Shown piece by piece: positions 5,776 to 62,057 of a stretch of 64,000 bases of DNA (its first letter is position 1; each line of letters opens with the position of its first letter). The notes beneath the pieces are model-generated. The model worked only from the letters and a program-made list of their open reading frames with translations, was not told where the DNA came from and did no database searches. The DNA is from Bacilli bacterium (lineage in GTDB: Bacteria; Bacillota_I; Bacilli_A; ML615J-28; CAG-313). A program made the translations under genes and the position numbers. The stretch lies in assembly GCA_017463365.1 (NCBI GenBank), contig JAFTPH010000052.1, positions 3,276 to 67,275 on the forward strand. The letters are read 5' to 3'.

Positions 5776-5964
5776 ATTCATCATATCCTTTTCTACTATT
5801 AGTATACTACAAAATTTATAAAATATCAATAAATTAGGAAAATAATTATTGATTTAGGAAAATTTTGCATAATTTTACGAAAATATTTTTCAAAAAACAA
5901 TTCATTTTTAATAATATTATTTTACTTATTCTTTAATTCGTATAAACACATTTTTTAATGGTAA

Positions 5965-6008: not shown

Positions 6009-9000
6009 TTATTCTTTAGACTCTTCTTCTTCTCCAAAGTATAAATCATATAAATCATCTGTTGCTTGTTCTTTTGTTTCTTCATCATCAGGGTTTCCTG
6101 CAAGAGCATTAATAATATTATTTAATTTATTAAAGAATGAATTGAAGAAGTCGAATAATTTATCGAAGAAGTCTTCGAATACTTCAAAGATTGTCTTAGT
6201 AGGAGTTCTCTTAACACCAACGTGTCCACATACATCACAGTGACTTTCAGCTTTACCTGGTTCATCAGTTGTTGCTTCTACTGTGTCTTCCCAATGTGTA
6301 TATGTATGAGGGATAGTAGCGATATCACGTTGTCCAGCTTCTCCACAACGTTCACATGTACTTACTTCAATACCAACTTCATAACATTTTGGATTTTTTA
6401 CCTTATTCCATTCTACGAATAAGTGACCAGTTGCTTCAGTTGTACGAGTTTCGAAGTGATCACATCCTGAACAATATCTTGTTTCGATACCATCAGTTAT
6501 ACAAGTGTGAGCTTGTTCAACTTGCCAATCACCATAAGTATGTCCTGAGAAATCAGTGTAGTAATCACAAATTGTACATTCTTGCCAGTGGTAATTATCA
6601 GTTTGTTTTGCAACTAAATTGTGTTTTAAGTTAAGAACTGCTTCACCTGTGAATAAATCATAATTTTGTTTATAACCAATTACAATATATTCATATCTAC
6701 CAGCTTCTACTGGAGAATCACCATTAACAGCAATTGAGTTAAGTGGTAAGTCAGATAAGATTTCTTCTACTTTGTCAATTAATTCGTTATCCGCAAATAA
6801 TTGTAAAATATGAATTAATTTAACTAGTGGTGATAATTGACCTTGAATATCGAAGAATTCATCTTTAACTCCCCAACTTTCAGGTAAGATAACATTTACA
6901 GTATGAGTGTCATTACCTAATACTAAAATGATTTCTTCTAATCCGTATGGGTTGTTAATTACAACATTATGAGGTTCTCCATCATGGAATAATTCTACAT
7001 CTTCTAAAGACATACCATGTTCTTCAGCATAAATAGTCATTGTTCCAACTGCTAAACCATATTGTAATAATTCAGGGTTATTGTAGATTGCAGTAACAGT
7101 ATAGAATCCAACATTTGTAGGAAGTTCTGTACTACTATATACTTCACCATTACTCATTACACCATTGTAATAGCATGTTAAATATTCATTTGGTAAAATA
7201 TCTCCATTATCAGCATACGCTTCAGGAATTAAGCCTTGTGGCATACCATTATATTTAAATTCTGCATCATCATTTACAAATTCAACAGAAATTGTATCAA
7301 TAACAACTGTGTATACACGAACAATTGGAATTGCATATAACATTTCATTACCTAAATCACGAGTATAAGCAATTTGTGTATAAGCACCAAGTTCGCTAAT
7401 TGGTTGATCAGTTACATATTGTTCACCATTGATATCAATACCAATATATAATGTAGCAAGTTTAGAAGTTGCCGCTTCATATAATTCTTGAGATAATCCA
7501 TCTTTCTTAACGTGAGCACCTAAGATAGTTGGATCTTGCATGATTGATGCTTTTGTTACCATAAAGTTTTCAACTTCAACGTTGAATCCAAGTTCAACTT
7601 TTGTAGCATCAGGTATAATAGTGATATATCCTAAACCGAAGGCTGTTTCATAGTTTTGTGATGTTGTTACAGCACCAATTAAGTATAATCCAGCTTCTTC
7701 TAGATAAATATCTTTACCCATTGTTAACATAATTTCAATACCAGTTGTACTTGAAATTTTTTCTAATTGTTCAAGCAGTTTGATTGTACTATCTAATGCA
7801 TCACTACTTAAGCTAACACCAACTAAGTTTTCAAGCATTTCTAATGCATCTTTAATACCTTCGATAGCCGCTTTTAATTCAGAAATACTCATTTGTTCAT
7901 TGAATCCAAGGTTATCTAAGATTGTTTGAACATATGGACGAACTGATTCTGGAACAGAATCTAAATCGATTAAATTAGGAATATTTAAGTAACTCATCAT
8001 ACCGGCACTTGCGTTTAATCCAATAGCAAGTTCAATTACTTCTAATTCAGGTTCAGTTGTAATACGTTCAGAAATGTTAACACCAGTACCTTTAATATCT
8101 TTATAATTGAATGATCCAGATACAACATTTACTTTAGCAGGAGCTTTTTCAACTGTAATTGTACAAGTTAATGTAGCAGGTTGATAATCATATTCAGAAC
8201 CAGCATAAGATAATGTAATTGTATGATCTCCAGCATTTAAAGTTTCAATTTGAGCATCGCTTAATGAGAAGCGAATTTCAGCTTTATCGATAGCCACCTT
8301 AATACCATTTTCATTAATAATATAAGCACCTAAGTAACCATCTAATAATAAGTTATATACATCTTCAGCTGTATAGTTGTTATATACTACTGAGATAGAT
8401 GTTGCAGCATCGATATATGTCTTAGTACGACCATCGACAACTGTAAATTCTACACGTTTACTACATGGAGCATATTCATCATCTCCAGCATAGTTAACTA
8501 AAATTGTATAAGTTTGACCGAATGTTGTAATTGATGAAGCTTGGATTTCAGTTGTTCCACGATATAATGCATAAGTAAATTCTTTATTTAATACAACACC
8601 ATTTGTTTCATCATATAATCCAATACCTAAATCTTCAACAATTTGGTCAAGTGATAATACATCACCTTTTACGAATGGAATTTCAAGCACATCATTATTA
8701 GTTACTTTAGTAACATTACGTCCGTCACTAACCATGAATTCTACTGTTGCTTCACTTCCAAGATGTGTACTTGTTGCCGGGAATTTAACAGTAATAGTAT
8801 AAACACCAGCTTCAGTAATTTGTGTAATTTCTGTATTTGTCGCAGAACTTAAGCTATTTAATGTTACATTTGCAGAAACATAACCATAGTCTACGATAGA
8901 TGCAGTGTTACCTTTAATAGATACTGATTCAAACACTAAGTTGAATACTTCTTCTTTAGTAACATAGTCAGTAGGTAATACTTGAGTTACAACATCTGAT

Positions 9001-12000
9001 TTTAAGTTAACTTGTGTTTCAGGACGAGCATCAACAATAGTTAATTTAACTGTAACATCTGATGGTTGACTTGAATTATTACCTTTAAATTTAATAATAA
9101 CATTATATTCACCAACAGAATCAATTCCTTTATAATCAATAGTTTTACCTAAAATTGATTCCATATAATAAATATTATTACCTAAGTTAGCGAAGTCTAA
9201 GATACTTCCTTTATAGATAGCTGAAATATAGAATTCAGCATCATCAATTCTGTTGCCTTTTGCATCATATGCAACAGGGTTAAATGCTTTTAACACTTTT
9301 TCAAGTGTTTCAAAATCTGAACCAATTGTACTTAAATCGTCTTCATAAATAGTTACTTCTTCACATTCAGTCTCAGATTCACCACGCATATCTTTAATTT
9401 CAAATGTGATTGTTGTATCACATTTTTGATATTCTGCAGCACCTGGACAACTAATATGAATAGTGTATTTACCAACGTTGTCTAATGGTTCATATGCTTG
9501 AGCCCCATATTCTTTACCTAAAAGAGTTAATCCTTTAGAGTAATAAATTTCAGGATCAGCTAAATCAATTCTTACAATTAAATCAATTTCAAATGTACCT
9601 TGATATGAAACATTGATGCCTTCAAATGTTTCTACTTGTACAGTAGGATTTAAGTAAGCAAGTAATGATTCTAAACTATCAAATTTAACAGGAATTTGAC
9701 CGAAATTATATGCATCATAACTTAAGTTAGGAACATAAATTTCACCAGATGGACGACCATCACTTACTGTGAATGTCATTTCTGTTTCAAAACCTTTAAC
9801 TGTGTCAGTACCAGCATATACAAATGTGATTGTATAATCTGTGGCTTCATCTAATTCTTTATAAGAAACATTGATTGGAATATTATATCCACCAATTTCT
9901 ACTCCTTGTTGAATGTAGTAGAATCCAAGTTTCTTTAATCCTTCTTCTGTTAAATCACTTAAATTTAAATCTTCCCCTAAACTTCCTAAAATATCAGATA
10001 AGTCTAATCCTTTTCTAATACTTGTGATTGTAAGTTCAGAACTATAATATTCTCCGTTTCCAATTTTAACCATCGGATTAATGTATTGAGTTAAAATATC
10101 TAATGATGAGAATAAAGTTTCACTATCTGTTAACTTACTTTCAACATATGTATCATATTCCCATACAAGAGTTGCATCAACACGACCATCGACAACTGTT
10201 AACTTAGCAGTGTATTCACCAGGTTGATATGTATTATCTCCAGCAAAACTTACTGTAACAGTGTATTCACCAAATTGATCTAACCCATTAAAATCTATTA
10301 CTTTATTACTACCAATAATTGGAAGATCGTATCCATTAGGATTATAATAAGCTTTTGTTCCATTAAATACACTAACGATAGATAATCCAGATACACCATT
10401 TACACCATTAACATTAGGAGTTAAGGCAGCTAGTACTTTATCTAAAGTATCAAATCTAGTAGCAATATTTAATCTATTGTCAAATGAAATCATCGGATCA
10501 GTAAATGTTACTGTTGATTCTGCACGAGTATCAGTAACAGTAAATGTAGCTGTTGCTTTTGATCCTTGATGAGTTGCGGTTTCAATAAATTCTAATTCAA
10601 TTGTATATGTTCCAGCTTTATTTAGTGGCACATAATCTTTTACAGGAACAGACACATTACCTAATGTTGTACTAATTGTGTGTTTACCATTTGAGTAGTA
10701 AATATTATCTCTTGATAGAATAGTTCCAGTAAGTGATAATTCACCTTGATAAATAACATTAATAACAACATTACCATCTACACTAATATTATTTTGATTT
10801 TTAATAACACACTCTAAGGCTTCTAATACTTTATCAAGAGTATTGTATTTAGCTTCAAGTTCTAGGAAATTATTAGAGTCAACATTTGGATCTATCCAAT
10901 CAATTGATGTAGTCGGACGAGTATCTTTAATTTCAATTACGGCAGTACCAGTACATCCTAATGTTGTATCTGTTGCTTCATATTCGAATGTAACAGTGTA
11001 TAAACCAGGTTTAACAATAGGGTCTTTGTATGCCCCACCAGAAATAATTTCAGTAATATCATATTCTTCATAATATGACACTTCATTTTCGTCAACAATC
11101 GATTTAATCTTAACATTTGGTGAAGAAATTGTTTGATCACCTATAATTAACGAAATTGAGAATTTCTTTAATACATTGTCTTTTAATTTAAAATCATTTG
11201 CAAGTGTCGTATGATTACTATACTCTAATTCAACATCTGGAATAGATAATTTAGTTGTTGAACGACCATCTTGTAAACTTAAAATTGCTGTAACAGTTTG
11301 TGCAGGTTTATGAGTATTGTCACCTTCAAAGCTTAGGGTAATTACATAATTTCCTACAGCATTAACTGTCTTATCAGCTGTTGCTTTAATTACTAATCCA
11401 TCAGCTTTTGTAATTTGATTGTTAATTACATTTTCAATATAAGCATTAACAGCTGTAACTAATTTTTCTGATGAATTATATTTAATATTAATTGCACTAC
11501 TATTAATATTTGGTTCATTAACAACGATTGGTGTATTAGAAACATTGATTCTTGTATCAATACGATTATCGTTAATTGTTAATTGAATAGTATTTGTAAT
11601 ACCTTTATATGTTTCAGATTCTGTTAATCTATAAGTAATGTTATAAACACCATTTCCTTTATTAATTTTTGTAATTCCACTAATACTGAAATGTGAATCA
11701 TTAATTTCAGAAATAGATGTAATAGCACCACCATTTAATTCAATATTTGATTTAATAATTGCTTTTACTTTACTAATACTATCAACTATTGAGAAATCGT
11801 CTACTGTAAGTTCAATATCATCAATTGAAATTTCAGTACGAGTATCATCAATTGTAAAGCGAATTCGTTTTGTGCATTCTTTATATAGATCAGTTGCATT
11901 ATATTTAACATAAATATCATATGTTCCAGCTAATCTAACTTGTTCTACTGAACTATCATTTAATAAAATTTCAGTAATTTCTACAGTTGCACCAGCAACA

Positions 12001-15000
12001 TCTTTAACAGCAATATTTAATTCACTAATAATATTAAATACCTTATTAAAGTTATCAGTTGCTAAACCTTTTGGAGTATAAGTAATTTCAGTAGCAATAC
12101 GGTTGTCATTAACAACAACTTTTACTGTTGCATTACTTGTACCATAAGAACTAGTTGCTTCAACTGCGAAAGCAATAGTGTATGTTCCAGCAGCATTGAT
12201 TGTACAATCTGTACCATTAATGTATGAATTATTTTCAGCATCAACAATACTTTGAACAACGATTGTTGGATTTTCAACTACACTTTCACCAATTAAAACT
12301 TTAACATTTAATTGATTAATAATTTCAGCAAGTGTATCAATTGTACCAAAGTCAGTAACATTTAATGTAACTGTATTTGCTACATCAATTGTACATGGAG
12401 TACGTCCATCAGTAATAGTGATTGTCGCATGACTTGTACATTCATTATGAGTATCATCTTCAACATATTTAAATGTTACTTTGTATGTAGCAATATTTGA
12501 AATAAATGTGTTATAGTCCCCACCACTATAAATAACTTCTTTTACATTTCCATCTCTGTCTAGTTCTTCAATTCTTGTAATAACAACATTTGGTGAAACA
12601 ATTGTTTCAGTTCCATCGTTAACTACAACATTGAATTTAGCTAAAACACTTTCAAGAGTCTTGAAGTTTTCAGCAATTGTAGCTGAAGTGCTTGCGTCAA
12701 ATGGAACATTTTCAACAGTCATAGTTGTTGTTTTACGACCATTTGTTAATTCAATTTTTTTATAAACTTCAACTGATGGTTTATGTGTCATATCTCCATT
12801 GAATTTTAATTCAATGTAATAAGTTCCAATACTATTAATTGTTTCATATCTTGTAACAACAATGTTAGATGCATCTAAGGCTGTACCAGTTGTAACGATA
12901 GTTGCATTTAAAACATTTCTAATTTCTGAATCTTCATCATATTTACCAGCGATTGCTGAATAATCAGGTTCAGCGAATGAATAATCTTTTGCTTCAATGC
13001 TTGTTTCAGAACGGGTATCATTAACTGTTAATGTAACTTTAGCTGTTGTTGCTTTATAAGTTTCTGACTCAGCAACTGTAACTTTTAATTCATAAGTTCC
13101 ATCATATCCTACAGGAATACTTGTAATTCCATTACCTATTGTAACAGTAACTTTATTTGCATCAATAGTTACTTCTTGACCGTTTGCATTAGCAGTTAAA
13201 TTGTTTAATACAAGAGTTTTAATTTGAGCAATAATGTCTTTACCATAATCAGGGACATTAATACTTAATTCGCTAGGAATAGTTGGTTCAGGACGAGCAT
13301 CAACAAGTGTTAATGTCGCAGTTTGAGTACATGGTTTATGTGTATTATCTCCAGCAAATTTGAATGTAATTGTATGACTACCATAATCAGTAATCGCATC
13401 AATTAATTCACCATCGATATCAGAAACTGAAACAGTTCCAGCTACCATAGCATTTCCATTAACAACAATTCCAGCTTTAAATAAGTTTAGAATTGCAGCT
13501 TTATCAAAAGTTCTTCCAATACTTGCCCAATTTGTGTTGTAAATATCAACTGGTTCGATTGGAGCAACTGTCATTGTACTTGCTTGTCTTTGATCAGTTA
13601 ATTTAAGGTTAACTGTAACTTCTTTAACTGTAACTTTATAAGATTTTGTATCTTCTAAATGTAATCTGATTGTATATGTACTAATTTGATCAAACTTTAC
13701 AAATCCTTTTCCAGGAATATCAATTTTATAACTTCCTATTGGATAATAAGCATCACTATCTGCATAGTAAACACCTAAGTCATCAACATCATCTATGCTA
13801 TTTATTGTTCCAACATAGATTGCAGAAATTCTTGGTTTAATAGATAGATCTTTAACTCCACCTACACTTACGTATGCACCTAATTCTTCTAACACTTTAT
13901 CTAAGCTATTAATTGAATATAAATCTTCATTTAAATTATCAACACCAACGCTCGTATTAGGAACACTAATTACAGCAGTAGGACGTACATCTATAATAGT
14001 TAATGTTGTTTCTAATGTTTTTGCATTACATGTATCACTGTCTTCAACAAATACAGTAACTGTGTATTCACCAGCACTTGTAATACCATTATTTCCACCA
14101 TTTACTTTAATTGTATAAGTTTGTTTTGATAAATCAAGGATATTTCCTTTTTCATCTTTAATATAATTTTTTATTAACTCTAATACTTCAAGTGCAGTAT
14201 CAGTTGTATTGAAATCACTAACTTCTTTAGAGATATTTTCATCAATTACTGGATTGATACGTTTATCTTCTAAAGTTAATGTTACTGATTTAGGTTCTGA
14301 TTTATAATCATGAGTATCATCATCAATATATTCAATAGTTACTGTGTATACTCCAACTTTAGTTAATGCAGTTAATTCATTCTTACCTGCGTCAGTAATA
14401 GTTACTTTAACATTACCATTGTTAACTAATGTCATATAGTTTTGAGCAGTACCATCAAATTTAACACTTAAATTGATTGTTTTTAAGATTTCTTCTAAAG
14501 TGTCAAATTGACCTGGAATTTGTGATAAATCAGCAAATCCAATACCAGGATTAGACACATTATTTGCGTCAATCGTTACAACTGAACGCTTATCTTTAAT
14601 ATCGAATGAAACTACTAATTCAGCTTTGTGATTTGTATTTGACTCAGGATATGTTACTTTAATTGAATAGTTACCTACTTTTTCAATAACATTTCCAGTT
14701 TCATTATAATAATTTTTATCACCATCACTAACTGTATAAGTTAATTTACCTAATCTGTTAGCTTCATTACCATTTACTAATACTTTTAATCCAATGATTT
14801 TAAATAGATCATCAATAGTAGTAAATTTAGATGAAATTGCATCTTTACTAATATTTGAAACAGGATATTCATTTACTGTATTTTGAAGAACAATAACTTC
14901 ACGTCCATCAATAACATTAATTGTTACTTCTTTGTTTTCTGCAGCAAGATGAGTATCTGTTGCTGCGTAAGATAAAACAACTTTATAAGTTCCAACTTTA

Positions 15001-18000
15001 GTGAATGGAATAAATTCTTTACCAGCTTGGTAATATAATACAGTAGCTCTTGTATCAGCATTATCATCAAAATAGATATAACTGATTGTAGGTTTAAATT
15101 TACCATTTACATTTGCTTCTAATAAAGTGATAATAGCATCTAATGAACTAAATTTATCATCAATTAAATTTAAATCAGCAAATGTTTCTGTAATACTATT
15201 AGCATTAATTGTAGTTGCTGCACGATTATCAGTTACTTCAAAGTTAACTACACATTGATTTACAGGTTTATTTGTATCATCTGTTGGATATGTTAATGTA
15301 ATTGTATATACTCCAAGAGCATCAATTGTATTAACAATATTTCCTGCGTTATCTGTAATTTTAATTTCAACTTTTGCTAAACGAGTATTATCAGCATTTC
15401 CATTAACTTTTACACTTACACCTAATTGTGCTAATAAATCAGCTTCATTTGCTAAAGCAGCTTTAATTGCATCAGCACTAATATCTGTTGCTTCATATTC
15501 AGTATTTGTATATGTAATTTCAATTTCTTCACGTGCATCATTAACTACTAATGTAATTTCTTGACTACATGGAGCACTATCATTATCACCAGCGAAACTT
15601 AATACTACTGTATATTCTCCTGCTTTGTTAATTGTAACTCCATTTTTAACTGTTGCAGTAAGAGGACCAGCAGTAAATTTATATTCAACTTCATCATTAA
15701 TTGCATTAACAATTTCTTCACTAGTATCTAAACCAGTTTCTAAACCGCTTAATGTAGGCACATCAATAGTTACTCTTGTAGGGAAAGCAATTGAAGTTGC
15801 AGCACGCTCAATTTTGAATGTGAATGTTAATGCACTTGCTTGGTTAGTTTCACTACCTTGAATAGAAATAGTTACTGTATAAGTTCCGTCATTTACAAGG
15901 TTAAGTGTTGAATCATTATAATATTCATTACCTTCAGCATCTACGATACTTGAGATAGCAACTAAATTTGTATTTACAACATTTCCATCAGCATAAACTG
16001 CAGGAATAATTTCTTTAATTGCAGCTAATGTAGCATCATTTAATTTAGCATATACTTTTTCAGTATAAGTATCTAAAGTAACAACTGGACGGTTATCGAC
16101 AATTGTAAATGTTGCAATTGCAAATGATTGCTTAATAGTATTTGTTTCATATACAAAAGTAATTTGATAAATACCTACAGCATCAATTGCGTTCTTAGTT
16201 TGCCAATCATCACTTTTATTTACTTTAAATTTGATTTCACCAAATTTAATATTTGCATAATCAATAGAAGTAACTAATTGACCATTCACTGTTAATTCAA
16301 CATTTCCAATTATATCTAATACTTCTTTTGGAGTATCAAATAAATCATTAATAGTTGATGAACTAGTAGATGGAGTATTATATGAACCAGTACCATTCAT
16401 ACTTAAACTTGAAGATAAACGAGCATCAACAAGTTTAAATCCTAATGTTTGTGTTAATGGTTTATATGTATCGCTTCCTTCAATCTTGATTGTTACACTA
16501 TATGTAGTCTCAAATTCAACATTTTCAGGATCTGCATAAGTATCAACTGTTGCATTAGCTAAATTTACTTCTAATGTATTTAAGATATTATCTTTAGCTA
16601 ATAAAGTATCAATTGTGCTAATATCTGTAATATCAATTTCTGAATCATAAGTTACTGTATATACTGAACGAGTATCTTTAATCTTTAAAGTTACTGTTTG
16701 TTCAGGTAATCCGAAATATTTATCATTTTCGTTTACTTTAACTTTTACAGTATATGTAGCATCACCATAAGGAATCTTATCAGTGGCGTTATAATTTGTA
16801 ACCGATACAGTAATATCGCTATCTAATATAGTTACACCATTAGCAATTGTTAACTTATCAATTATTAATTTTCTGAATGTTAAATCAGCAAAATCACTAA
16901 CTTCAACTTCAATTGAAGAATTAATTGCAGGTCTTGGTCTAACATCTGAAATTTTTAATGTTATGGTAACTGGAGTTGCAGGTTTATGAGTTTCATCACC
17001 CTTACAACTTAATGCAATTGTATAAGTTCCTACAGCACCAATTCCTGTTTCAGTTTCTTCTGTTATTGTATTACCATTAACTGTAATTACTGAAGCTGCA
17101 CCATTTAATTTAAATTGCACTCCATTTGCTACAAGAAGATCAACTAATTCAGCTAATGTGTCATATGCAGAAGTACGTTCTAATTTAGAACTAAATTCTT
17201 TTGTAATTTCATTTGTTGGAACATAGAAACCAGTTTCAGTACGTCCATCATTAAGTGTGAATATTACAGTTGATTCTCCAGATCTATATTTACTATTACC
17301 ATCGTAATCAATTGTAATTTTATATTGCCCAGCTGAAGTTATTTTAGTTACTTCAGTAGTTTTTAAACTTGCATTTGAAATAGTTTCTAATGCTTCATAT
17401 TGTCCACTTGTTGAATTATATTTTTCAATAATTAATGAAAGTCCACCAATTGTTTCAGCAAGTAATCCGTATTTTGTATTTTGAATAGCACTTAATAATC
17501 CTGTTGCTCCAATAGTAGTTAATAAAGTTTCTAACTTACCATATCCAGCAAGCTCAGTTAAACTTATAAATGCACATGTTGTATCTTTAACATTAAAAAC
17601 ATAAACTTCACGAGCATCAACTACTTCAAATTGAATTGTTCCAGCAGTTGCTTTATAAGTTTCAGTATCTAAAACTACAAATGCAATATTATATATTCCA
17701 GTTGTAGTAATTGGTTTATAACTTACTGGATTTTCTGAATCAGTATTATATAAGCATTCATTATTAGAATTTGTAATACTTAAAATACTAAAAGTAGTTA
17801 CATGCATTTTATCATTTAAAAGCATCGTTTTAATTTCATCTAAAGTATCGATTTTACTGTAATCACTTACAATGTCATATAAATTAAATTTATAATTAGT
17901 AAAACTTAATTCTTCACGAGCATCAGTTACATTTAATGTAACTTCAGTTTCTGCCATTGCTTTATAAGTTTCATTTTCTGCAACTGTAACTTTAATAACA

Positions 18001-20315
18001 TAATTTTTAGTTCCATATGGAATTTTTCCATCTGTAACACCTGTAATTGTTACATCGCTTTCAGCAACTTTAACATCTAATTTGCTAATTAAATATTCTT
18101 TAAATGTAACAACACCTTTATAATCAGTAATTGTTTCATTAAATGTAGTAGCAGTAATATTTGGAGTTGTACGACTATCTGTTAATGTAGCAGATACATA
18201 ACAGTTAGAATAAACACCAGATAAGTATACTCTTACACTTTCAGAATATGTTTGATTTTTGCTCCAATCAGTACCGAATCTATCAAACGAACTTCCATCA
18301 GTTATTACAACCCATTTATCTTGACCAGCATGATTTTCTTCAAATTGGATTGTAACATTATTAATGTTAAATACATCTTTTGTAGAATCCTTTAATACAT
18401 CATAAATCTTTTGTTTTAATTTATCACCAGTAATACTTGTGATATTATAATAACTAATTTTTGTTGACGCAAAACCAAATCCAGCGTTTGCTATTGGTGT
18501 TGCTTCAACGCTTAAATTATATGTTGTTTTAGTACTAGCAGTAGTGAATGTTCCTGTCCATGTAGCACCATTCCAAGAACCGTTAATTGCTACACCATCT
18601 AATAATATTTTACTAGCTTCAAGATAGTATTGTGAAGAAGGAGTAATTGTAATTGTAACATCTTGACCAGCAGGCAATGTTGCTCCACTAGTCTCTTTAA
18701 CTTCTTCATTTACTGTAGCTGTAACAGTTGCATTAGATACAGTCCAATTTAATGTTGAATCAGTATCTTGTCTTATCACCAATGTAACTGTTTTACTTTC
18801 AGCTGCAAGATAATCAATATTTTCAGCATAATTAAATTTAATTGTGTAATCACCAAAATCAGAAATTGCAGCACCAGATAGATTTGTATATTCACTTCCA
18901 TTAATAGTTACACTACTAAAAGATTTTCCATTATCAATATTAGCATTAAACATATTAATAATATCTTGAAGTTTAAAATCTTGGCTTTCTTCAAATTCTT
19001 TTTCTATTTTATCTGGAGAAGCAGAAATTGTAGGTTTAGATCTTTTTTCAGTTAATTTTGTTTCAGGAATAACACATTTACCATATTTACCAGATAAATA
19101 CACCTTTACATTTTCATATGTTTGTATTTTATCTTCACCAACTACAGTATTAAGTAAGAATTTTGATTCATTTCCAGATAAATCAATCCATTGGTTTCCT
19201 AAATAATACTCCCAATAAATTTCTATTTTTCTATAATCTAACTTTTCATCTTTACCTTCATTTAGAGCATCCATTATTCTATTTGCAATTGGATATTCAG
19301 ATGAAGTAGGACTAAATAAACTAATTTGAGTAGTATCAAACTTAAACTCATGTTTAGTCGCATTAACCGTTAATATATAATCTGTAGCAGTTGAAGTAAT
19401 TGTATAAGATCCAGTCCATACACCTTCACTTGACCATCCGCCATCTTTATTATACGTTGCACCAGGTAAACTAATATTAGTTGATGGATCAACATAATAA
19501 TCAGTTGATGGTGTAAGTCTAATATAAATCTTTGTCCCTAAAGGTAAAGATGTAGTTGATGTTAAAGCAGAAAAACTTCCAGAATCACCAATTTTTATTT
19601 CAGCAGTAACATTATTGAGAGCTGGCTTAATAGTTGATTCTTGTGTATATGTAATATTTAATTCTACATTACTTTTTAAAGTATTCGAAATGCTATATAC
19701 ACCATTAACGGCTTCAACAGCAACTGTATTATTTTCAACAACTAATTTATGATTACTTAAAAGATTTGATGATGGAGTATAAGTAATAGTTGTTCCATTA
19801 ATTGAAAGCGAATCATAATTATCTGCTGTGTACTCTTTAACGGTATTTGAGTCAACATAAAGGGTTTCTAACAGAGCATTTTGACCACCAATTGAAATAG
19901 TAACATCTAATATATATTCATATACATCAATTGTAACACTTTTCCCTGACATAATTGAACATTTTGTAGGTGACCAACTTGTACCTAAACCACTAAAAGA
20001 ATATATTTGAATAACATCATTCTCATTGAAAGATAATGTATTTCCGGCCCCATTATTTAATGTGCTATAAGTGATTCGTTCAGGGGTCCCACCATTAACA
20101 GAATATCCATAACTACCAGTACTAGCCGAAGAATTACTAAATCCAAATATGCTAACTAAAAGTTCTTTTTCAGTAGTTATACCATTTTTCAAATGAACAA
20201 CTGATCCATCTATCACATACTCTGCCTCTACCTCTACATTAGTAGATGTGAAACCTAGGATAGATACTACAGCAATCATTGCTATAAATAATCTTAATAA
20301 AAATTTTCTATTCAT
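6009..20315 (-). CDS. giant (4768-aa) secreted, repeat-rich surface protein (putative adhesin)
   Basis: Single 14.3 kb ORF. ATG start with an AAGGAGGTG RBS. N-terminal signal peptide MNRKFLLRLFIAMIAVVSILGF. About 35-40 tandem ~100-aa repeats ending in a T-x-T-L-x-V-x-D-x-R hinge, consistent with Ig-like/beta-sandwich modules. An MBG-like segment (…FKYNGMPQG…NVGFYTVTAIYNN…). A C-terminal Cys-rich 39-aa repeat x3, then an F-rich segment, then an acidic tail. No LPXTG. Confidence 0.85.
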   Translation of the reverse strand: MNRKFLLRLFIAMIAVVSILGFTSTNVEVEAEYVIDGSVVHLKNGITTEKELLVSIFGFSNSSASTGSYGYSVNGGTPERITYSTLNNGAGNTLSFNENDVIQIYSFSGLGTSWSPTKCSIMSGKSVTIDVYEYILDVTISIGGQNALLETLYVDSNTVKEYTADNYDSLSINGTTITYTPSSNLLSNHKLVVENNTVAVEAVNGVYSISNTLKSNVELNITYTQESTIKPALNNVTAEIKIGDSGSFSALTSTTSLPLGTKIYIRLTPSTDYYVDPSTNISLPGATYNKDGGWSSEGVWTGSYTITSTATDYILTVNATKHEFKFDTTQISLFSPTSSEYPIANRIMDALNEGKDEKLDYRKIEIYWEYYLGNQWIDLSGNESKFLLNTVVGEDKIQTYENVKVYLSGKYGKCVIPETKLTEKRSKPTISASPDKIEKEFEESQDFKLQDIINMFNANIDNGKSFSSVTINGSEYTNLSGAAISDFGDYTIKFNYAENIDYLAAESKTVTLVIRQDTDSTLNWTVSNATVTATVNEEVKETSGATLPAGQDVTITITPSSQYYLEASKILLDGVAINGSWNGATWTGTFTTASTKTTYNLSVEATPIANAGFGFASTKISYYNITSITGDKLKQKIYDVLKDSTKDVFNINNVTIQFEENHAGQDKWVVITDGSSFDRFGTDWSKNQTYSESVRVYLSGVYSNCYVSATLTDSRTTPNITATTFNETITDYKGVVTFKEYLISKLDVKVAESDVTITGVTDGKIPYGTKNYVIKVTVAENETYKAMAETEVTLNVTDAREELSFTNYKFNLYDIVSDYSKIDTLDEIKTMLLNDKMHVTTFSILSITNSNNECLYNTDSENPVSYKPITTTGIYNIAFVVLDTETYKATAGTIQFEVVDAREVYVFNVKDTTCAFISLTELAGYGKLETLLTTIGATGLLSAIQNTKYGLLAETIGGLSLIIEKYNSTSGQYEALETISNASLKTTEVTKITSAGQYKITIDYDGNSKYRSGESTVIFTLNDGRTETGFYVPTNEITKEFSSKLERTSAYDTLAELVDLLVANGVQFKLNGAASVITVNGNTITEETETGIGAVGTYTIALSCKGDETHKPATPVTITLKISDVRPRPAINSSIEVEVSDFADLTFRKLIIDKLTIANGVTILDSDITVSVTNYNATDKIPYGDATYTVKVKVNENDKYFGLPEQTVTLKIKDTRSVYTVTYDSEIDITDISTIDTLLAKDNILNTLEVNLANATVDTYADPENVEFETTYSVTIKIEGSDTYKPLTQTLGFKLVDARLSSSLSMNGTGSYNTPSTSSSTINDLFDTPKEVLDIIGNVELTVNGQLVTSIDYANIKFGEIKFKVNKSDDWQTKNAIDAVGIYQITFVYETNTIKQSFAIATFTIVDNRPVVTLDTYTEKVYAKLNDATLAAIKEIIPAVYADGNVVNTNLVAISSIVDAEGNEYYNDSTLNLVNDGTYTVTISIQGSETNQASALTFTFKIERAATSIAFPTRVTIDVPTLSGLETGLDTSEEIVNAINDEVEYKFTAGPLTATVKNGVTINKAGEYTVVLSFAGDNDSAPCSQEITLVVNDAREEIEITYTNTEYEATDISADAIKAALANEADLLAQLGVSVKVNGNADNTRLAKVEIKITDNAGNIVNTIDALGVYTITLTYPTDDTNKPVNQCVVNFEVTDNRAATTINANSITETFADLNLIDDKFSSLDAIITLLEANVNGKFKPTISYIYFDDNADTRATVLYYQAGKEFIPFTKVGTYKVVLSYAATDTHLAAENKEVTINVIDGREVIVLQNTVNEYPVSNISKDAISSKFTTIDDLFKIIGLKVLVNGNEANRLGKLTYTVSDGDKNYYNETGNVIEKVGNYSIKVTYPESNTNHKAELVVSFDIKDKRSVVTIDANNVSNPGIGFADLSQIPGQFDTLEEILKTINLSVKFDGTAQNYMTLVNNGNVKVTITDAGKNELTALTKVGVYTVTIEYIDDDTHDYKSEPKSVTLTLEDKRINPVIDENISKEVSDFNTTDTALEVLELIKNYIKDEKGNILDLSKQTYTIKVNGGNNGITSAGEYTVTVFVEDSDTCNAKTLETTLTIIDVRPTAVISVPNTSVGVDNLNEDLYSINSLDKVLEELGAYVSVGGVKDLSIKPRISAIYVGTINSIDDVDDLGVYYADSDAYYPIGSYKIDIPGKGFVKFDQISTYTIRLHLEDTKSYKVTVKEVTVNLKLTDQRQASTMTVAPIEPVDIYNTNWASIGRTFDKAAILNLFKAGIVVNGNAMVAGTVSVSDIDGELIDAITDYGSHTITFKFAGDNTHKPCTQTATLTLVDARPEPTIPSELSINVPDYGKDIIAQIKTLVLNNLTANANGQEVTIDANKVTVTIGNGITSIPVGYDGTYELKVTVAESETYKATTAKVTLTVNDTRSETSIEAKDYSFAEPDYSAIAGKYDEDSEIRNVLNATIVTTGTALDASNIVVTRYETINSIGTYYIELKFNGDMTHKPSVEVYKKIELTNGRKTTTMTVENVPFDASTSATIAENFKTLESVLAKFNVVVNDGTETIVSPNVVITRIEELDRDGNVKEVIYSGGDYNTFISNIATYKVTFKYVEDDTHNECTSHATITITDGRTPCTIDVANTVTLNVTDFGTIDTLAEIINQLNVKVLIGESVVENPTIVVQSIVDAENNSYINGTDCTINAAGTYTIAFAVEATSSYGTSNATVKVVVNDNRIATEITYTPKGLATDNFNKVFNIISELNIAVKDVAGATVEITEILLNDSSVEQVRLAGTYDIYVKYNATDLYKECTKRIRFTIDDTRTEISIDDIELTVDDFSIVDSISKVKAIIKSNIELNGGAITSISEINDSHFSISGITKINKGNGVYNITYRLTESETYKGITNTIQLTINDNRIDTRINVSNTPIVVNEPNINSSAINIKYNSSEKLVTAVNAYIENVINNQITKADGLVIKATADKTVNAVGNYVITLSFEGDNTHKPAQTVTAILSLQDGRSTTKLSIPDVELEYSNHTTLANDFKLKDNVLKKFSISLIIGDQTISSPNVKIKSIVDENEVSYYEEYDITEIISGGAYKDPIVKPGLYTVTFEYEATDTTLGCTGTAVIEIKDTRPTTSIDWIDPNVDSNNFLELEAKYNTLDKVLEALECVIKNQNNISVDGNVVINVIYQGELSLTGTILSRDNIYYSNGKHTISTTLGNVSVPVKDYVPLNKAGTYTIELEFIETATHQGSKATATFTVTDTRAESTVTFTDPMISFDNRLNIATRFDTLDKVLAALTPNVNGVNGVSGLSIVSVFNGTKAYYNPNGYDLPIIGSNKVIDFNGLDQFGEYTVTVSFAGDNTYQPGEYTAKLTVVDGRVDATLVWEYDTYVESKLTDSETLFSSLDILTQYINPMVKIGNGEYYSSELTITSIRKGLDLSDILGSLGEDLNLSDLTEEGLKKLGFYYIQQGVEIGGYNIPINVSYKELDEATDYTITFVYAGTDTVKGFETEMTFTVSDGRPSGEIYVPNLSYDAYNFGQIPVKFDSLESLLAYLNPTVQVETFEGINVSYQGTFEIDLIVRIDLADPEIYYSKGLTLLGKEYGAQAYEPLDNVGKYTIHISCPGAAEYQKCDTTITFEIKDMRGESETECEEVTIYEDDLSTIGSDFETLEKVLKAFNPVAYDAKGNRIDDAEFYISAIYKGSILDFANLGNNIYYMESILGKTIDYKGIDSVGEYNVIIKFKGNNSSQPSDVTVKLTIVDARPETQVNLKSDVVTQVLPTDYVTKEEVFNLVFESVSIKGNTASIVDYGYVSANVTLNSLSSATNTEITQITEAGVYTITVKFPATSTHLGSEATVEFMVSDGRNVTKVTNNDVLEIPFVKGDVLSLDQIVEDLGIGLYDETNGVVLNKEFTYALYRGTTEIQASSITTFGQTYTILVNYAGDDEYAPCSKRVEFTVVDGRTKTYIDAATSISVVYNNYTAEDVYNLLLDGYLGAYIINENGIKVAIDKAEIRFSLSDAQIETLNAGDHTITLSYAGSEYDYQPATLTCTITVEKAPAKVNVVSGSFNYKDIKGTGVNISERITTEPELEVIELAIGLNASAGMMSYLNIPNLIDLDSVPESVRPYVQTILDNLGFNEQMSISELKAAIEGIKDALEMLENLVGVSLSSDALDSTIKLLEQLEKISSTTGIEIMLTMGKDIYLEEAGLYLIGAVTTSQNYETAFGLGYITIIPDATKVELGFNVEVENFMVTKASIMQDPTILGAHVKKDGLSQELYEAATSKLATLYIGIDINGEQYVTDQPISELGAYTQIAYTRDLGNEMLYAIPIVRVYTVVIDTISVEFVNDDAEFKYNGMPQGLIPEAYADNGDILPNEYLTCYYNGVMSNGEVYSSTELPTNVGFYTVTAIYNNPELLQYGLAVGTMTIYAEEHGMSLEDVELFHDGEPHNVVINNPYGLEEIILVLGNDTHTVNVILPESWGVKDEFFDIQGQLSPLVKLIHILQLFADNELIDKVEEILSDLPLNSIAVNGDSPVEAGRYEYIVIGYKQNYDLFTGEAVLNLKHNLVAKQTDNYHWQECTICDYYTDFSGHTYGDWQVEQAHTCITDGIETRYCSGCDHFETRTTEATGHLFVEWNKVKNPKCYEVGIEVSTCERCGEAGQRDIATIPHTYTHWEDTVEATTDEPGKAESHCDVCGHVGVKRTPTKTIFEVFEDFFDKLFDFFNSFFNKLNNIINALAGNPDDEETKEQATDDLYDLYFGEEEESKE

Positions 20316-45786: not shown

Positions 45787-46884
45787 TTACTCATAACGAT
45801 GTTCTTTTTTTACTCCAGTCACTACCAATTCATCATTTTGATAAATAGATATCAGTGTACTAGTAACTTTACCGAAATAACTTTCCTCATCCCACTCATC
45901 TATAATATAACTTAATCCACACTTATCACAAACTCCTGAAGTAATTGTATGAGAGATATTATTGGCATCTTCTTTCTTAACTACTGTAACATCACTTATA
46001 ACACAATTGATCTTAATTTCTTGTATTTCATCAATTGACCCACACACTTTACATTTATAACATTCAATGTTTCCACCACATGATGAATATTTAGATAAAT
46101 CAATTATATTTCCACTGGTAATAATATGTCCTGAACTTTTTGATTTAGCAACTTGATCACATTTTTTACATGTTTCAATAATTTCATAACCATTTAAACA
46201 ATCTTCACCACTTAAAATATAGGAAATATCATTATCATGATCATAATAAACTCTTTGATCATAAAATTCACCAATTATTTCATCACCTAAAATAAAGGAA
46301 GAAACAATATAATTTAATACTCCACAATTATCAAAATATTTAGTCCACATCTTTTGTTCATAATTTAATCCACAAGTTTTACACTCTAAAACCGATACTT
46401 CATATTTGTACCCATTAGCATCTTGTTGAATAACAATTTCTTTTTCTTTATTTGGTACAAAATTACAATTACCATTAATAACCATTCTCGTACCAGATGA
46501 ACCACACACCAAACATTCACCTTTAGTAGCCGAATTCATACATACATCATAATTTTCGAAATTAATTGAGACATCCTCAAACTTATGTTTTTCACAACTC
46601 TCAATTGAACCACACTTATAGCATTCACCTTTTTCATACTCATGGCTGCATATGATACTACATTCCTTACACATACCTCTATTCCACTTATGTTCAATTG
46701 GAAGATCATTTTGTTTAGTTATCCCACACAAGTTACACTTACATTCTTCAAGTCCTTCACTTGTACATGTCGCTGAAACTAATTCATACCATTCACCAAA
46801 TTCATGGTTACATTCTTTATCACAGCCAACCAGACATGTTATTAATAAAAACAAAACTATAGAACTTAAAATTACTTTCTTCAA
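45787..46884 (-). CDS. Cys-rich lipoprotein built from W/Cys/His repeat units (putative multi-zinc-ribbon surface protein)
   Basis: 365 aa with lipobox …LLITCLVGCDKE. About 36 Cys in repeated H..GEW…TC…G…C.C..C units. TTG start with an AAGGAG RBS. Confidence 0.6.
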   Translation of the reverse strand: MKKVILSSIVLFLLITCLVGCDKECNHEFGEWYELVSATCTSEGLEECKCNLCGITKQNDLPIEHKWNRGMCKECSIICSHEYEKGECYKCGSIESCEKHKFEDVSINFENYDVCMNSATKGECLVCGSSGTRMVINGNCNFVPNKEKEIVIQQDANGYKYEVSVLECKTCGLNYEQKMWTKYFDNCGVLNYIVSSFILGDEIIGEFYDQRVYYDHDNDISYILSGEDCLNGYEIIETCKKCDQVAKSKSSGHIITSGNIIDLSKYSSCGGNIECYKCKVCGSIDEIQEIKINCVISDVTVVKKEDANNISHTITSGVCDKCGLSYIIDEWDEESYFGKVTSTLISIYQNDELVVTGVKKEHRYE

Positions 46885-47329: not shown

Positions 47330-47908
47330 CTAATTTCTTCTTCCTATATAACGAAACACTTTATTTTTATATGTGATATATGTTTCTCCAAAAGTTTTCT
47401 CTAAATACTTTTCTTCTTGAAGAATTTGAAAATGTAACATAACAATAGCAAATAATGAAAAAATTATCGTTAAAACATTACAATACAATAAACAAATTCC
47501 GATGTACATTAAATCAAAACCTAAAAATGCTGGATTCCTACTTATTTTATAAATTCCATTAGAAATAAATTCTGTATTATCTTCACTTGGGATTCCTGCT
47601 CTCCAGCTGTTCTTCATAGTTATTATAGATATTAAAAATAATATATTCCCTATTATCCCAACTGCAAAACCAATAAATCTAATGTTATCATTTAAAATAG
47701 TTAAATCAAATATTATCGAAATTAGTTGTATTGGAACAATTACAAGTGTTGCAATGGATAGTAAAATTTCTACGCTTCTAATATTTAGATTTTTCCCTTT
47801 TCCGAGCTGTCTCGTTTTAATTCCTTGTTTTTTTTGAACAATCATTTTTCCATAATAAATACCATAAAATATTATCATTATTGATAATGCCAAAATTTTA
47901 TAAACCAT
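47330..47908 (-). CDS. isoprenylcysteine carboxyl methyltransferase (ICMT/PEMT) family membrane protein
   Basis: 192 aa with 4-5 TM and a C-terminal …ISRNPAF…EEKYLEKTFGETYITYKNKV… family signature. Confidence 0.6.
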   Translation of the reverse strand: MVYKILALSIMIIFYGIYYGKMIVQKKQGIKTRQLGKGKNLNIRSVEILLSIATLVIVPIQLISIIFDLTILNDNIRFIGFAVGIIGNILFLISIITMKNSWRAGIPSEDNTEFISNGIYKISRNPAFLGFDLMYIGICLLYCNVLTIIFSLFAIVMLHFQILQEEKYLEKTFGETYITYKNKVFRYIGRRN

Positions 47909-57620: not shown

Positions 57621-57628
57621 AATAACAC

Positions 57629-58096: not shown

Positions 58097-58131
58097 TACG
58101 TTCTCCTTATTATAAAAAGATTAACTCATCA

Positions 58132-58491: not shown

Positions 58492-58564
58492 ATAATACAC
58501 ATCCTTGTATTTTAATTTTATCACATTTATATTAATTTTTCAATTGAATTAAATATCTTAAAAG

Positions 58565-58589
58565 AAAAAAGCCCTAAAGGGCTTTTTTT
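58565..58589. terminator. bidirectional terminator AAGCCC-taaa-GGGCTT with T/A runs
   Basis: Hairpin read directly, 3' of the LRR protein gene. Confidence 0.6.
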
Positions 58590-61371
58590 ATCCAAAAATG
58601 TATTCGTATAATGATTCTTTTTGTTCTTCTTCATCATCCATTGCGAAAATAGATTGAATGAATGAAGAAAATGATTTAGCAACTTGATCTAAATTTAAAG
58701 CATCACTAACTGAACCAGCCATATCTGATGTAGAACCAAAAATATTACCGATACTATCAAAGATATTTCCAATTGCAGTCATACCTCTTTCTATTAAGTC
58801 AGCGAAAGTAACTTTTCTAATTGCTTCTGTTTCAAAATGATCACAGTTAGCACAATCTTTTTGTTTTAATCCTTCTACTTGTGTAGAAGCTTCTTTTACT
58901 ACATACCATTCACCCATAGCATGTCCTGTTGCTGCAATAGGTTGTGTTTCAAAATGATCACAATTAGCACAATCTTTTTGTTCTAATCCTTCTGCTTCAC
59001 ATTTTGCAGGTTCAACTACATACCATTCACCCATAACATGTCCTGTTGCTGCGATAGGTTGTGTTTCAAAATGATCACAATTAGCACAATCTCTTCTTTC
59101 TAATCCTTCTGCTTCACATTTTGCAGCATCAACTACAGTCCATTCATCATAAGTGTGACCTGTTGCAGGAATTTCTTTATATGTTGTATAATCACATTTT
59201 GAACATGTAACATACGCTTCCCAACCAATATTTTCACAATCTTCTACCTTTCCAGCATGTTCTTCTAGTTTATGAATACAGTATCCCCATACTACAGGGC
59301 ATATACCATTCCAGTTATCTGCCCATGTATCAGGTTTAGCTTCAGCTTCACAGTAGATTGTTAGGTTAGGACACACACTAAATACTGACTGATCTAATCT
59401 TGCATCACTAACGCTTAATGGAATATAAACACTCTTTAAATTAGCACAAACTGAGAATGCATTTAAATAAAGTGAAGTTAAACTTTCAGGTAATGTAATT
59501 GTTTCTAAACTTGTACATCTAGAAAAAGCAGATTGTTCAATATAACTTAGAACACTTCCTTCTTCAAAATTAACATTTTTTAAACTTGTACAATTACTAA
59601 ATGCAGAAATAGAAATACCTTTAACTGATTTAGGAATAGTAATTTCTTTTAAATTTATACATCCTTTAAAAGCAGATCCATATATATATTCAATGCCTTC
59701 GGCCAATATAACTTCTTCTAAATTAACACATCCTTCGAACATATAATTGTAAACATACTTAGTTTTTGTATTTTCTTCATATGTTACTTTCGTTAATCCT
59801 TCATAACCATAGAATTTATAATAACCGCTATACCAACTAATACCACTTGGAATAACTACTTCTGTTAAGTAATAATATTCATTATTTTCATCTAATAAAT
59901 AGAATTTTTTAGCTACTGAAATAGGATTACGAGTTTTCTCATTAGTATTTGTTGTTAAAAATCTAGCTAATGTTTTTGCATAATACACATCTTTTATTTC
60001 TGGACATCCATTAAACGCATATTGATTAAAATTACTCAATGTACTTGGTAAAGATAAAGTTTCTAAATTTTCACATCCACTAAATGCAAAAGCACCTAAA
60101 CTTTTAACACCTTCAGATAATGTAATTGATTTAAGATTTTTGCAACTATTAAATGCATTATTGTTAATACTTGTAACACCTTCGGGAGTAACAAAGCTTT
60201 CAGCTTTCTTACCAGCAGGATATGCTAATAATGTTTTACCATCAACAGAATATAATACACCATCAACACTCTTATATGTTTCATTTTTAACATCTACATT
60301 AATTGCTTCTAAACTTGTACATCCTAAAAATTCATTAGCATCAATACTTGTAATTCCACTAGCAATAGTTACACTTGTGATATCAGTGTTTCCAGCAAAT
60401 GTACCAGGTAAAATTTCTGTTACAACTAATCCTTTATATTCCTTTTGAATAATAACATCTTTATCTGTACATGTTCCCATACCAGACAATACAGCTTTTT
60501 TAGGAATATTATAATACTCATCTACAATTGCCCAGTTTACTCCATTTCTAATTCTTTGTGCCAAAAATTCACGAACATATATTTTCCACATAAAAGGACT
60601 ACTAGGCATTTTATTAACCATATCAAAATAATAATTCATTTTCAATGATATGTATTCAAATAACCAACTCCATTTAGCCCACATTGCTTCATCATTTACA
60701 AATGAATCACTATTAGCATTATACATATGGTTGCCAAATTTTGAAGTAAAAGTATTTAAATTAAAATCACCTTCTGTTCCACAATGAGTATTTAAGTCTT
60801 TCATAAAGTCAGCCACTAATGCTTCATGACTTTCATAGTTGTTAGTTGAAACAATTACTTTACCATCTACTGAGATAATACCCTCAACAATTTCATATTT
60901 TAAACCAGCACTTACTTTTTCTCCACAGTTTAAGCATGCACTACCTTCATAGTTATGTCTTAATTCAGGGATTTCTACATATGTTGTATAACAACATTTT
61001 TCACATGTTTGGTAAGCTTGCCAACCAATTTCTTCACATTTTGCTTCTTTTCCAGCATGGTCTACTAGTTTATGATCTCCACAATCTAAAACTAACCATT
61101 TAGCAACATAAGTCCCTGTTGCGTTAACAGCAACAACTTTTTGTTCAGCTAAGTACCATCCTTGGAATACGTAACCATCTCTAGTTGGTACAGGTAAAAT
61201 ATAACCCGTTTCAACAGTAGTTTCAGGTTCACTTGCGAATTCACCACCATTTAAAATGTAAGTAACTTCGTATTTTTGTACTTCACTACTTTCTTCTGCT
61301 TTAATATTGATATTAAATAAACATACTAATACCACTATTAATAAAGAAGTAATTTTTAAAATCTTTCTCAT
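58588..61371 (-). CDS. secreted BspA-type leucine-rich-repeat surface protein with Listeria-Bacteroides repeat, Cys/His/Trp repeats and an acidic C-terminal tail
   Basis: 927 aa with a signal peptide MRKILKITSLLIVVLVCLFNINIKA. Flg_new-like GYVFQGWY. Multiple LRR_5-type repeats (…AFxxCxxLxxIxIP…). A C-terminal triplicated GHxxxEW…C…CANCDHFET…ATGH unit, then an I/F-rich segment, then DDEEEQKESLYEYIFG. Confidence 0.8.
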   Translation of the reverse strand: MRKILKITSLLIVVLVCLFNINIKAEESSEVQKYEVTYILNGGEFASEPETTVETGYILPVPTRDGYVFQGWYLAEQKVVAVNATGTYVAKWLVLDCGDHKLVDHAGKEAKCEEIGWQAYQTCEKCCYTTYVEIPELRHNYEGSACLNCGEKVSAGLKYEIVEGIISVDGKVIVSTNNYESHEALVADFMKDLNTHCGTEGDFNLNTFTSKFGNHMYNANSDSFVNDEAMWAKWSWLFEYISLKMNYYFDMVNKMPSSPFMWKIYVREFLAQRIRNGVNWAIVDEYYNIPKKAVLSGMGTCTDKDVIIQKEYKGLVVTEILPGTFAGNTDITSVTIASGITSIDANEFLGCTSLEAINVDVKNETYKSVDGVLYSVDGKTLLAYPAGKKAESFVTPEGVTSINNNAFNSCKNLKSITLSEGVKSLGAFAFSGCENLETLSLPSTLSNFNQYAFNGCPEIKDVYYAKTLARFLTTNTNEKTRNPISVAKKFYLLDENNEYYYLTEVVIPSGISWYSGYYKFYGYEGLTKVTYEENTKTKYVYNYMFEGCVNLEEVILAEGIEYIYGSAFKGCINLKEITIPKSVKGISISAFSNCTSLKNVNFEEGSVLSYIEQSAFSRCTSLETITLPESLTSLYLNAFSVCANLKSVYIPLSVSDARLDQSVFSVCPNLTIYCEAEAKPDTWADNWNGICPVVWGYCIHKLEEHAGKVEDCENIGWEAYVTCSKCDYTTYKEIPATGHTYDEWTVVDAAKCEAEGLERRDCANCDHFETQPIAATGHVMGEWYVVEPAKCEAEGLEQKDCANCDHFETQPIAATGHAMGEWYVVKEASTQVEGLKQKDCANCDHFETEAIRKVTFADLIERGMTAIGNIFDSIGNIFGSTSDMAGSVSDALNLDQVAKSFSSFIQSIFAMDDEEEQKESLYEYIFG

Positions 61372-61596
61372 AGTTTAATCTCCTTTCATTATACAAAAGT
61401 GTACTTTTGTAATATAGTTAAATTGTATCATAAATAATGTTTATTTTCAATATATTTGTCAATAAATATTTGCTTTTTTAACTATTTAAATCAATTTATA
61501 AAAGTACACTTTTATAGAATAATTAATATTTATATTCATTTTGCGTTCTAAATAAAAATATGGTATAATATGACTATATTTGATGAGGTGATAAAC

Positions 61597-61815: not shown

Positions 61816-61817
61816 TT

Positions 61818-62056: not shown

Positions 62057-62057
62057 A

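Follow-up and report, generated by a model that had tools for sequence, protein, structure and literature searches.

The two genes and their shared C-terminal module

The 64-kb window described here (the whole stretch of DNA analyzed, 64,000 nucleotides) belongs to a metagenome-assembled 'Bacilli bacterium' and has a G+C content of 29%. It carries two genes for large secreted proteins that end in the same C-terminal module. The module begins with a row of Cys/His units, here called the stalk, and continues with a Phe/Ile-rich amphipathic helix, an acidic run and a short LY[DE]x[YI]FG motif, which together are called the tail. The stalk is homologous to the ZBD1 and ZBD2 domains of an IgA protease, and the tail stands where homologous proteins hold an anchor. 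The two proteins are referred to as the giant protein and the leucine-rich repeat (LRR) protein, and their genes are:

6009..20315, minus strand: giant protein gene, 4768 aa, MBQ8293331.1, with a signal peptide at the N-terminus and the module at the C-terminus
58588..61371, minus strand: LRR protein gene, 927 aa, MBQ8293371.1

A preliminary description of this DNA had proposed that the two proteins share such a module. Translation of both gene ends reproduced the C-terminal sequences that it quoted, and the Cys/His units, the amphipathic helix, the acidic run and the motif were all recovered in both proteins. The LRR protein is built, in order, of a signal peptide, a Flg_new domain, ZBD-like units, BspA-type LRR_5 repeats and the C-terminal module. 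No Pfam match at E<=0.01 was obtained for the 4768 aa of the giant protein. Its richness in Thr, Ile, Val and Asn makes it a probable beta-rich adhesin, built of domains that have no models. Each of the two proteins is the sole member of its own 90% cluster, and a search for contigs encoding either of them brought up nothing beyond the contig itself and identical fragments of strains, one of which (L038) is identical to the window.

Both proteins also begin and end as had been described. Their Sec signal peptides are typical by eye, with a basic n-region, an h-region of Kyte–Doolittle hydropathy 2.2-2.4 and AxA-like cleavage sites (VEA↓E or IKA↓E). A hydrophobicity scan of both whole proteins revealed no transmembrane (TM) helix beyond the N-terminal signal peptide, and the LPXTG motif was found in neither. 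The open reading frames (ORFs) stop at 6009 in the giant gene and at 58588 in the LRR gene. RNA folding placed a stable hairpin directly 3' of each stop (-19.9 kcal/mol for the giant gene and -12.2 kcal/mol for the LRR gene), which indicates that the C-termini of both proteins are genuine; a consensus terminator scanner called 0 sites after the two stops.

Identity of the stalk

The stalk arrays of the two proteins lie at the following positions:

6201..6626, minus strand: giant stalk array, aa 4564-4705, one HxxxH...CxxC starter unit and three ~39-aa units
58813..59280, minus strand: LRR stalk array, aa 698-853, one type-B unit and three 39-aa W-type units

The three tandem units of about 39 aa reported earlier were recovered with a hidden Markov model (HMM) of the unit, which scored the LRR units at 77-84 bits (n=3) and the giant units at 45, 17 and 8.5 bits. 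Each array, however, begins one unit earlier than had been described, with a starter unit termed 'type-B' (HxxxxH...C...CxxC). The ligand pattern GH...C...CxxC(x)H is seen in every unit, and its H, C and C columns are invariant in a 21-sequence alignment. In the last unit of both arrays, Thr replaces the first Cys. AlphaFold2 (AF2) models contain three strands per unit in the giant stalk, with a predicted local distance difference test score (pLDDT) of 95-97, and three strands per 39-aa unit in the LRR stalk, with a pLDDT of 91-98.

A PDB sequence search (phmmer) with the LRR module matched a single entry, a construct of the IgA protease of Thomasclavelia ramosa (9qa6_A, E=0.0034). The unit profile matched the same construct with E=2.6e-5 in three stretches, all of which fall within ZBD1 and ZBD2. 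The subdomains of ZBD1 and ZBD2 are three-stranded antiparallel sheets of ~34-40 residues, with predicted zinc sites of 2His+2Cys or 3Cys+1His at the subdomain interfaces (PMC12237041). The same domains, also designated CTD2 and CTD4, form an extended rod according to small-angle X-ray scattering, and the authors proposed a 'periscope' spacer role for them (PMC12415215). ZBD2 directly precedes the sortase motif, TM helix and charged tail of the protease (PMC12237041).

The Cys/His units of the window proteins are, by sequence, homologous to ZBD1 and ZBD2. They share with them the Cys/His ligand pattern, the three-stranded beta units, the terminal unit of the W...A-T-x-T...CxxC type, the extracellular location and the position just before a C-terminal anchoring segment. 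The two systems differ in what comes next: in the protease the stalk is followed by an SPQTG sortase motif, a TM helix and a charged tail, and in the window proteins by an amphipathic, acidic, helical tail. Because of their homology to domains that the 2025 papers predict to hold zinc sites, the units are very likely zinc-binding, this being a prediction both in the protease and in the window proteins. The zinc-ribbon-like fold suggested in the preliminary description is supported as to probable zinc binding and not as to the ribbon, since AF2 gives three-stranded sheets instead of classic ribbons. Comparison of the unit models with PDB folds gave no match, and the published accounts of the ZBD domains report no PDB fold match either (PMC12237041, PMC12415215).

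Pfam and NCBIfam scans of both C-terminal modules returned only noise (Antiterm, YheV). The earlier view of the module as undescribed thus holds insofar as no model exists in these databases, but its Cys/His part is the IgA protease stalk module. The stalk is a new member of this module, which was described in 2025, has no Pfam or NCBIfam model and is common in gut Firmicutes.

Further units of this kind occur elsewhere in the window:

60913..61083, minus strand: extra ZBD-like Cys/His units in the LRR protein, aa 97-153, between Flg_new and the LRR region (weak unit-HMM match)
46684..46824, minus strand: ZBD-type unit in a lipoprotein, directly after the lipobox Cys (hmmsearch E=4.5e-6)

The unit after the lipobox shows that a stalk unit can also adjoin an N-terminal lipid anchor within the same window. 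Together with the units at aa 97-153 of the LRR protein, it shows that the units are not restricted to C-termini. The lipoprotein ORF (45787-46884, minus strand) encodes a Cys-rich protein of 365 aa with no Pfam match and about ten more CxxC pairs. The linker between units reads EIPATGH or IPALGH (LRR aa 734, ~59170-59184, and many homologues) and mimics the LPXTG sortase motif, so that proteins with these repeats could be mistaken for sortase substrates.

Position of the tail compared with homologous proteins

A protein search with the LRR module matched 32 proteins, which share the units only. In these proteins the units adjoin SLH, SH3, dockerin, LRR_5 and FN3 domains and precede C-terminal TM helices. 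The genomes of 185,579 species (one per species) were scanned as well, with the unit motif CxNCDHFE, which was chosen as the query since the broad alignment had no conserved stretch; the metagenome-assembled genome (MAG) from which the window comes lies outside this collection. The scan yielded 35 loci, nearly all of them in Clostridia MAGs of animal guts. The elements that follow the last unit at these loci are:

Dockerin: L003, L005, L006, L008, L012, L019, L021, L023, L028
TM helix and basic tail: L015, L016, L024, L026, L027, L029, L030, L031
SH3 repeats: L013, L014
SLH: L018
Cell-wall-binding repeats: L022, L032

Several other loci (e.g., L002, L010, L011) have large LRR or other domains after the units, or reach the contig end. 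The TM helices after the last unit carry KKK or RRK. Among the homologues with a readable protein end and a C-terminal stalk, within the 32 proteins and 35 loci, a retention device is usually placed after the last unit, so the tail of the window proteins occupies the anchor slot. A tail like that of the window was found at none of the 35 loci. The proposal of a C-terminal anchoring or sorting signal is thus borne out as to position for the tail, whereas the units that accompany it also occur away from C-termini.

The same slot holds other helical ends in some of these proteins. In P0018, a ZBD protein, the last unit gives way to an amphipathic helix unlike that of the window (...NAIINAIMEFIRNLIQQIMGIFGDKE; hydrophobic moment 0.64), which closes the protein. 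Several Clostridia proteins (P0006, P0033, L024 and L031) share another conserved tail after the stalk, which covers the C-terminal ~110 aa. This tail is helical (ALGYLxxFIxAV...YSELYxAxxLYxKLTxxEK...) and is followed by a TM helix ending in LLKKKFW[FIM]K.

Sequence and predicted structure of the tail

The tails are 60-75 aa long and comprise two to three helices. Their parts are:

6102..6200, minus strand: giant amphipathic helix, aa 4706-4738, TKTIFEVFEDFFDKLFDFFNSFFNKLNNIINAL, with a Phe/Ile/Leu face against a D/E/N/K/S face
6012..6101, minus strand: giant acidic end, aa 4739-4768, with the acidic run AGNPDDEETKEQATDD, LYDLYFG at 6033-6053 and then EEEESKE; a second helix is predicted here
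58732..58812, minus strand: LRR amphipathic helix 1, aa 854-880, VTFADLIERGMTAIGNIFDSIGNIFGS
58642..58692, minus strand: LRR amphipathic helix 2, aa 894-910, LDQVAKSFSSFIQSIFA, hydrophobic moment 0.53
58591..58641, minus strand: LRR acidic end, aa 911-927, MDDEEEQKES and the terminal LYEYIFG

The helix directly after the last unit is the window of highest hydrophobic moment in the whole protein, at 0.65 in the giant protein and 0.62 in the LRR protein (mean 0.19, standard deviation 0.10). Its helical wheel splits cleanly into IFFFFLFFFFFLIIL on one side and TEVEDDKDNSNKNNNA on the other, and its heptads follow the pattern hydrophobic-hydrophobic-x-x-hydrophobic-(hydrophobic)-x. AF2 places a helix at model residues 164-195 of the giant module (pLDDT ~90-97), and in the LRR module it places helix 1 at model residues 152-173 and helix 2 at 190-206 (pLDDT ~55-70). 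A PDB sequence search with the tail gave no match. In the six-frame translation of the window, LY[DE]..FG occurs twice, and both occurrences are the C-termini of these two proteins.

Relatedness and rarity of the tail

The giant and LRR tails are ~30% identical. No significant similarity between them was detected by phmmer, and BLASTP aligned them with 17 bits and a pairwise E=0.01. Smith-Waterman comparison against composition-preserving shuffles gave z=4.2, with 9/2000 shuffles reaching the score. Against a third tail, found at locus L039, the same comparison gave z=7.1, and 0/2000 shuffles reached the score.

L039 (JAEIGA010128970.1, 28% GC) was the one further tail carrier in a scan of JGI metagenomes, and its protein ends in ...CKHCNHFETRVVDKLTVEEVVDKGATSVGNIFDSIGKIFDSVSSIFDSISDALNLDKVVKSFAEFLSDLFSMDDEEEQKEALYDYYFG followed by the stop. 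The L039 and LRR tails align without gaps at 59% identity (44/75), and the adjoining stalk unit is 46% identical (17/37). The acidic run and motif are the best-conserved part, with 14/17 residues shared (binomial p ~0.006 against the rest, a post hoc comparison). The upstream units of L039 are of a different type than those of the LRR protein. Downstream of L039 lie two unidentified ORFs and then groES-groEL-like ORFs, and downstream of the LRR gene lie a DtxR-like repressor and luxS. These differences in upstream units and downstream genes indicate that L039 is a different gene from the LRR gene.

All other searches for relatives were negative. A word-indexed search of 5.8 billion protein clusters gave 0 matches with the giant module and 0 matches with the tail alignment, for which four candidates shared words, and a scan of viral contigs gave no relative of the tail. 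Exhaustive phmmer comparison of the LRR tail with 1.84 billion representatives produced five matches, which were rejected as spurious. They fall in internal tandem repeats of unrelated proteins, namely GLIFDSLGNLYGTT-type, trimeric-autotransporter and RTX-like repeats.

Within the window, the other five secreted proteins do not carry the tail and have lipoboxes or a C-terminal TM helix instead. In an ABC solute-binding protein (50073-51503, minus strand), the signal peptide is not of the lipoprotein type and has no lipobox; at its C-terminus this protein has a TM helix with a basic tail (...LTWASVIVLALITAVVMIRSAIKQRNRRLHIRH). The tail is a real, conserved and transferable element that is extremely rare and restricted to this lineage.

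Proposed function of the tail

We tentatively favor the reading in which the stalk is a spacer and the tail a non-covalent element that retains the protein on the cell surface, most likely by insertion into the outer leaflet. The stalk would be formed by three-stranded beta units of ~39 aa arranged end to end and joined by Cys/His zinc sites. As a rigid spacer, it would keep the LRR adhesin domains, or the ectodomain of the giant protein, at a distance from the cell. After Sec export and cleavage of the signal peptide, the tail would keep the protein on the surface without a covalent bond. The hydrophobic face of the helix would most likely be buried in the cytoplasmic membrane, in its outer leaflet, as in PBP5; alternatively, the tail could dock with a partner at the surface. 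The end with acidic and aromatic residues might shield the hydrophobic face while the protein is exported, or it might make a specific contact, and the acidic charge would fit full translocation better than stop-transfer. The tail is probably a lineage-specific attachment device and not a general sorting signal.

The closest parallel to such an anchor is found in E. coli PBP5 and PBP6 (DacA/DacC), which are also Sec-exported proteins with a C-terminal amphipathic helix. In PBP5, the last 18 residues form an amphipathic helix by which the protein is held on the outer side of the inner membrane (PMC2909392). The end of PBP5, as read from MG1655, is ...WFG, which resembles GNIFDSIGNIF...YIFG at the end of the LRR protein and is comparable to it in mean hydrophobicity; this likeness covers a short stretch and could be due to convergence. 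The PBP5 anchor differs in its length of ~18-20 residues, its net charge of ~0 to +1, its lack of an acidic extension and its hydrophobic moment of 0.41-0.50. The window tails are longer (63-75 residues), acidic and multi-helix, with moments of 0.62-0.65, and there is no sign of common descent.

The classical Gram-positive devices (LPXTG/sortase, TM helix with basic tail, dockerin, SLH, SH3b, and choline- or cell-wall-binding repeats) share with the tail the slot after the last unit. They differ from it in that no sequence or profile similarity connects them, the tail has neither LPXTG nor a TM helix, and its end is acidic and not basic. A literature search for C-terminal amphipathic anchors in surface proteins of Gram-positive bacteria gave no relevant result. 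It is possible, though doubtful, that the tail represents a new class of non-covalent C-terminal anchor in uncultured low-GC gut Bacilli, where it would replace sortase signals, TM helices or dockerins and where the acidic-aromatic end would serve as a cation-bridged or partner-specific latch. Such an anchor class is possibly suited to an unusual envelope that is glycolipid-rich or wall-less.

Several observations weigh against surface retention by the tail. We infer it solely from the position and the physical chemistry of the tail. The tails have an overall net charge of -9 to -13 (-2 to -5 for helix 1). Since bacterial membranes are themselves anionic, simple electrostatically assisted binding is not expected. 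An acidic tail could still be held through cation bridges, through neutral glycolipids, by a protein partner or by self-association. The AF2 confidence of the LRR tail is also modest, with a pLDDT of 53-86. Only three carriers are known, and they come from one or two closely related uncultured organisms. Finally, the codons of the LRR and L039 tails differ by many amino-acid changes and few synonymous ones, which suggests that constraint is weak outside the conserved islands and that much of the region is evolving fast.

Alternative explanations

The physical properties that suggest insertion into a membrane could also serve contacts between proteins. The tail might be an oligomerization element whose amphipathic helices pack into a bundle or coiled coil and build multivalent fibrils, with retention achieved otherwise, e.g., by an uncleaved signal anchor. 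This would account for the regular heptad spacing of hydrophobic residues (IFDSxxx three times; FFxxLFx) and for the acidic polar face, which speaks against lipid binding. We consider it unlikely, since the hydrophobic face is very wide (3-4 per 7 residues) and dominated by Phe, which is unusual for coiled coils, the homologues hold anchors at the tail position, and the signal peptides have plausible AxA-type cleavage sites. The tail might otherwise be a docking peptide for a surface receptor, similar to dockerin-cohesin pairs, with the acidic-aromatic end as the epitope and the helix in the interface. Dockerins are indeed the commonest element at the tail position in Clostridia homologues, the acidic-aromatic end is the most conserved segment, and acidity suits protein or cation-mediated binding better than lipid binding. 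Docking is nevertheless quite improbable: no candidate partner has emerged, the Pfam and NCBIfam scans reveal no dockerin homology and the tail has no calcium-binding loops, and its very large exposed Phe face would require burial.

The comparison with LPXTG, GlyGly-CTERM and type IX secretion system (T9SS) C-terminal domains (CTDs), which the preliminary description had drawn, implies a true sorting signal, a tail that a dedicated enzyme or transporter would recognize by LY[DE]x[YI]FG and probably cleave. The tripartite layout with a short conserved terminal motif would agree with this, as would the motif being the best-conserved part of the LRR and L039 tails and the presence of the tail on three different passenger proteins. 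However, known signals of this kind are numerous per genome and phylogenetically broad, whereas the protein, genome, viral and metagenome searches brought up one relative and the 64-kb window holds two carriers. The window also lacks a candidate processing enzyme, with no sortase-, rhomboid- or exosortase-like gene; an ICMT/PEMT-family membrane methyltransferase is encoded at 47330-47908 (minus strand), and no link between it and the tail was found. The order of hydrophobic segment, acidic run and motif reverses the known order of motif, TM helix and basic tail, and the tail has no TM helix. The distance of the motif from the C-terminus is not fixed, being 0 residues in the LRR protein and 7 in the giant protein. 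Enzyme-processed signals (LPXTG, GlyGly-CTERM, PEP-CTERM, T9SS CTD) consist of a motif with TM helix and basic residues or of a beta-sandwich, and the helical, acidic tail is neither. The comparison is therefore not upheld, and a sorting signal is very unlikely.

A further explanation, which we regard as similarly remote, is that the tail has no function and is a fast-evolving, low-complexity remnant that was copied along with the C-terminal cassette between paralogous genes. Surface-protein genes recombine often, the tail is extremely rare, and the ratio of nonsynonymous to synonymous differences between the LRR and L039 tails is high, all of which would be expected of such a remnant. A remnant would not be expected to keep its amphipathic periodicity, acidic run and motif at the low identity of the giant and LRR tails, nor to be more conserved between L039 and LRR than the adjacent folded unit, as the tail is. 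In the post hoc comparison, its last 17 residues show significantly higher conservation than the remainder of the region, and AF2 predicts ordered helices.

Three other candidates were dropped. A type VII secretion signal of the YxxxD/E type was set aside because both proteins have Sec signal peptides, and C-terminal recognition of the beta-signal or PDZ type because further residues follow the motif in the giant protein. Anchoring as a lipoprotein was discarded because the giant signal peptide has no Cys and the lipobox of the LRR protein is poor (VLVC).

Genes surrounding the two loci

The giant gene lies between two HATPase_c_4 genes, at 4336-5829 and 20822-21835, both on the minus strand. 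One of them has the domain content AlbA_2/HATPase_c_4/Fic-like_C and the other HATPase_c_4/HTH_24, and the two genes may be a duplicated pair that was split by the giant gene. Genes for Fur and rubrerythrin are also found near the giant gene. The LRR gene sits amid metal-homeostasis genes (region 56841-63869) that encode a ZIP transporter (56841-57620), a DtxR-family repressor (~58132-58491) and FeoB (62058-63869), and LuxS is encoded there too.

Significance

The ZBD/periscope module has so far been described in one IgA protease, and the present results show it to be a frequent component of surface proteins in gut Firmicutes. With a profile for this module, many large adhesins now listed as 'hypothetical' could be annotated, and the false LPXTG-like matches that arise from the IPATGH linker between units could be removed. 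The general importance of the tail, with three proteins, is limited unless full genomes show more carriers. If the tail is indeed an anchor, it would be a novel means by which proteins exported through Sec remain on the cell in uncultured Bacilli. It would then help to predict surface-exposed giant adhesins and could provide a small portable tag for surface display.

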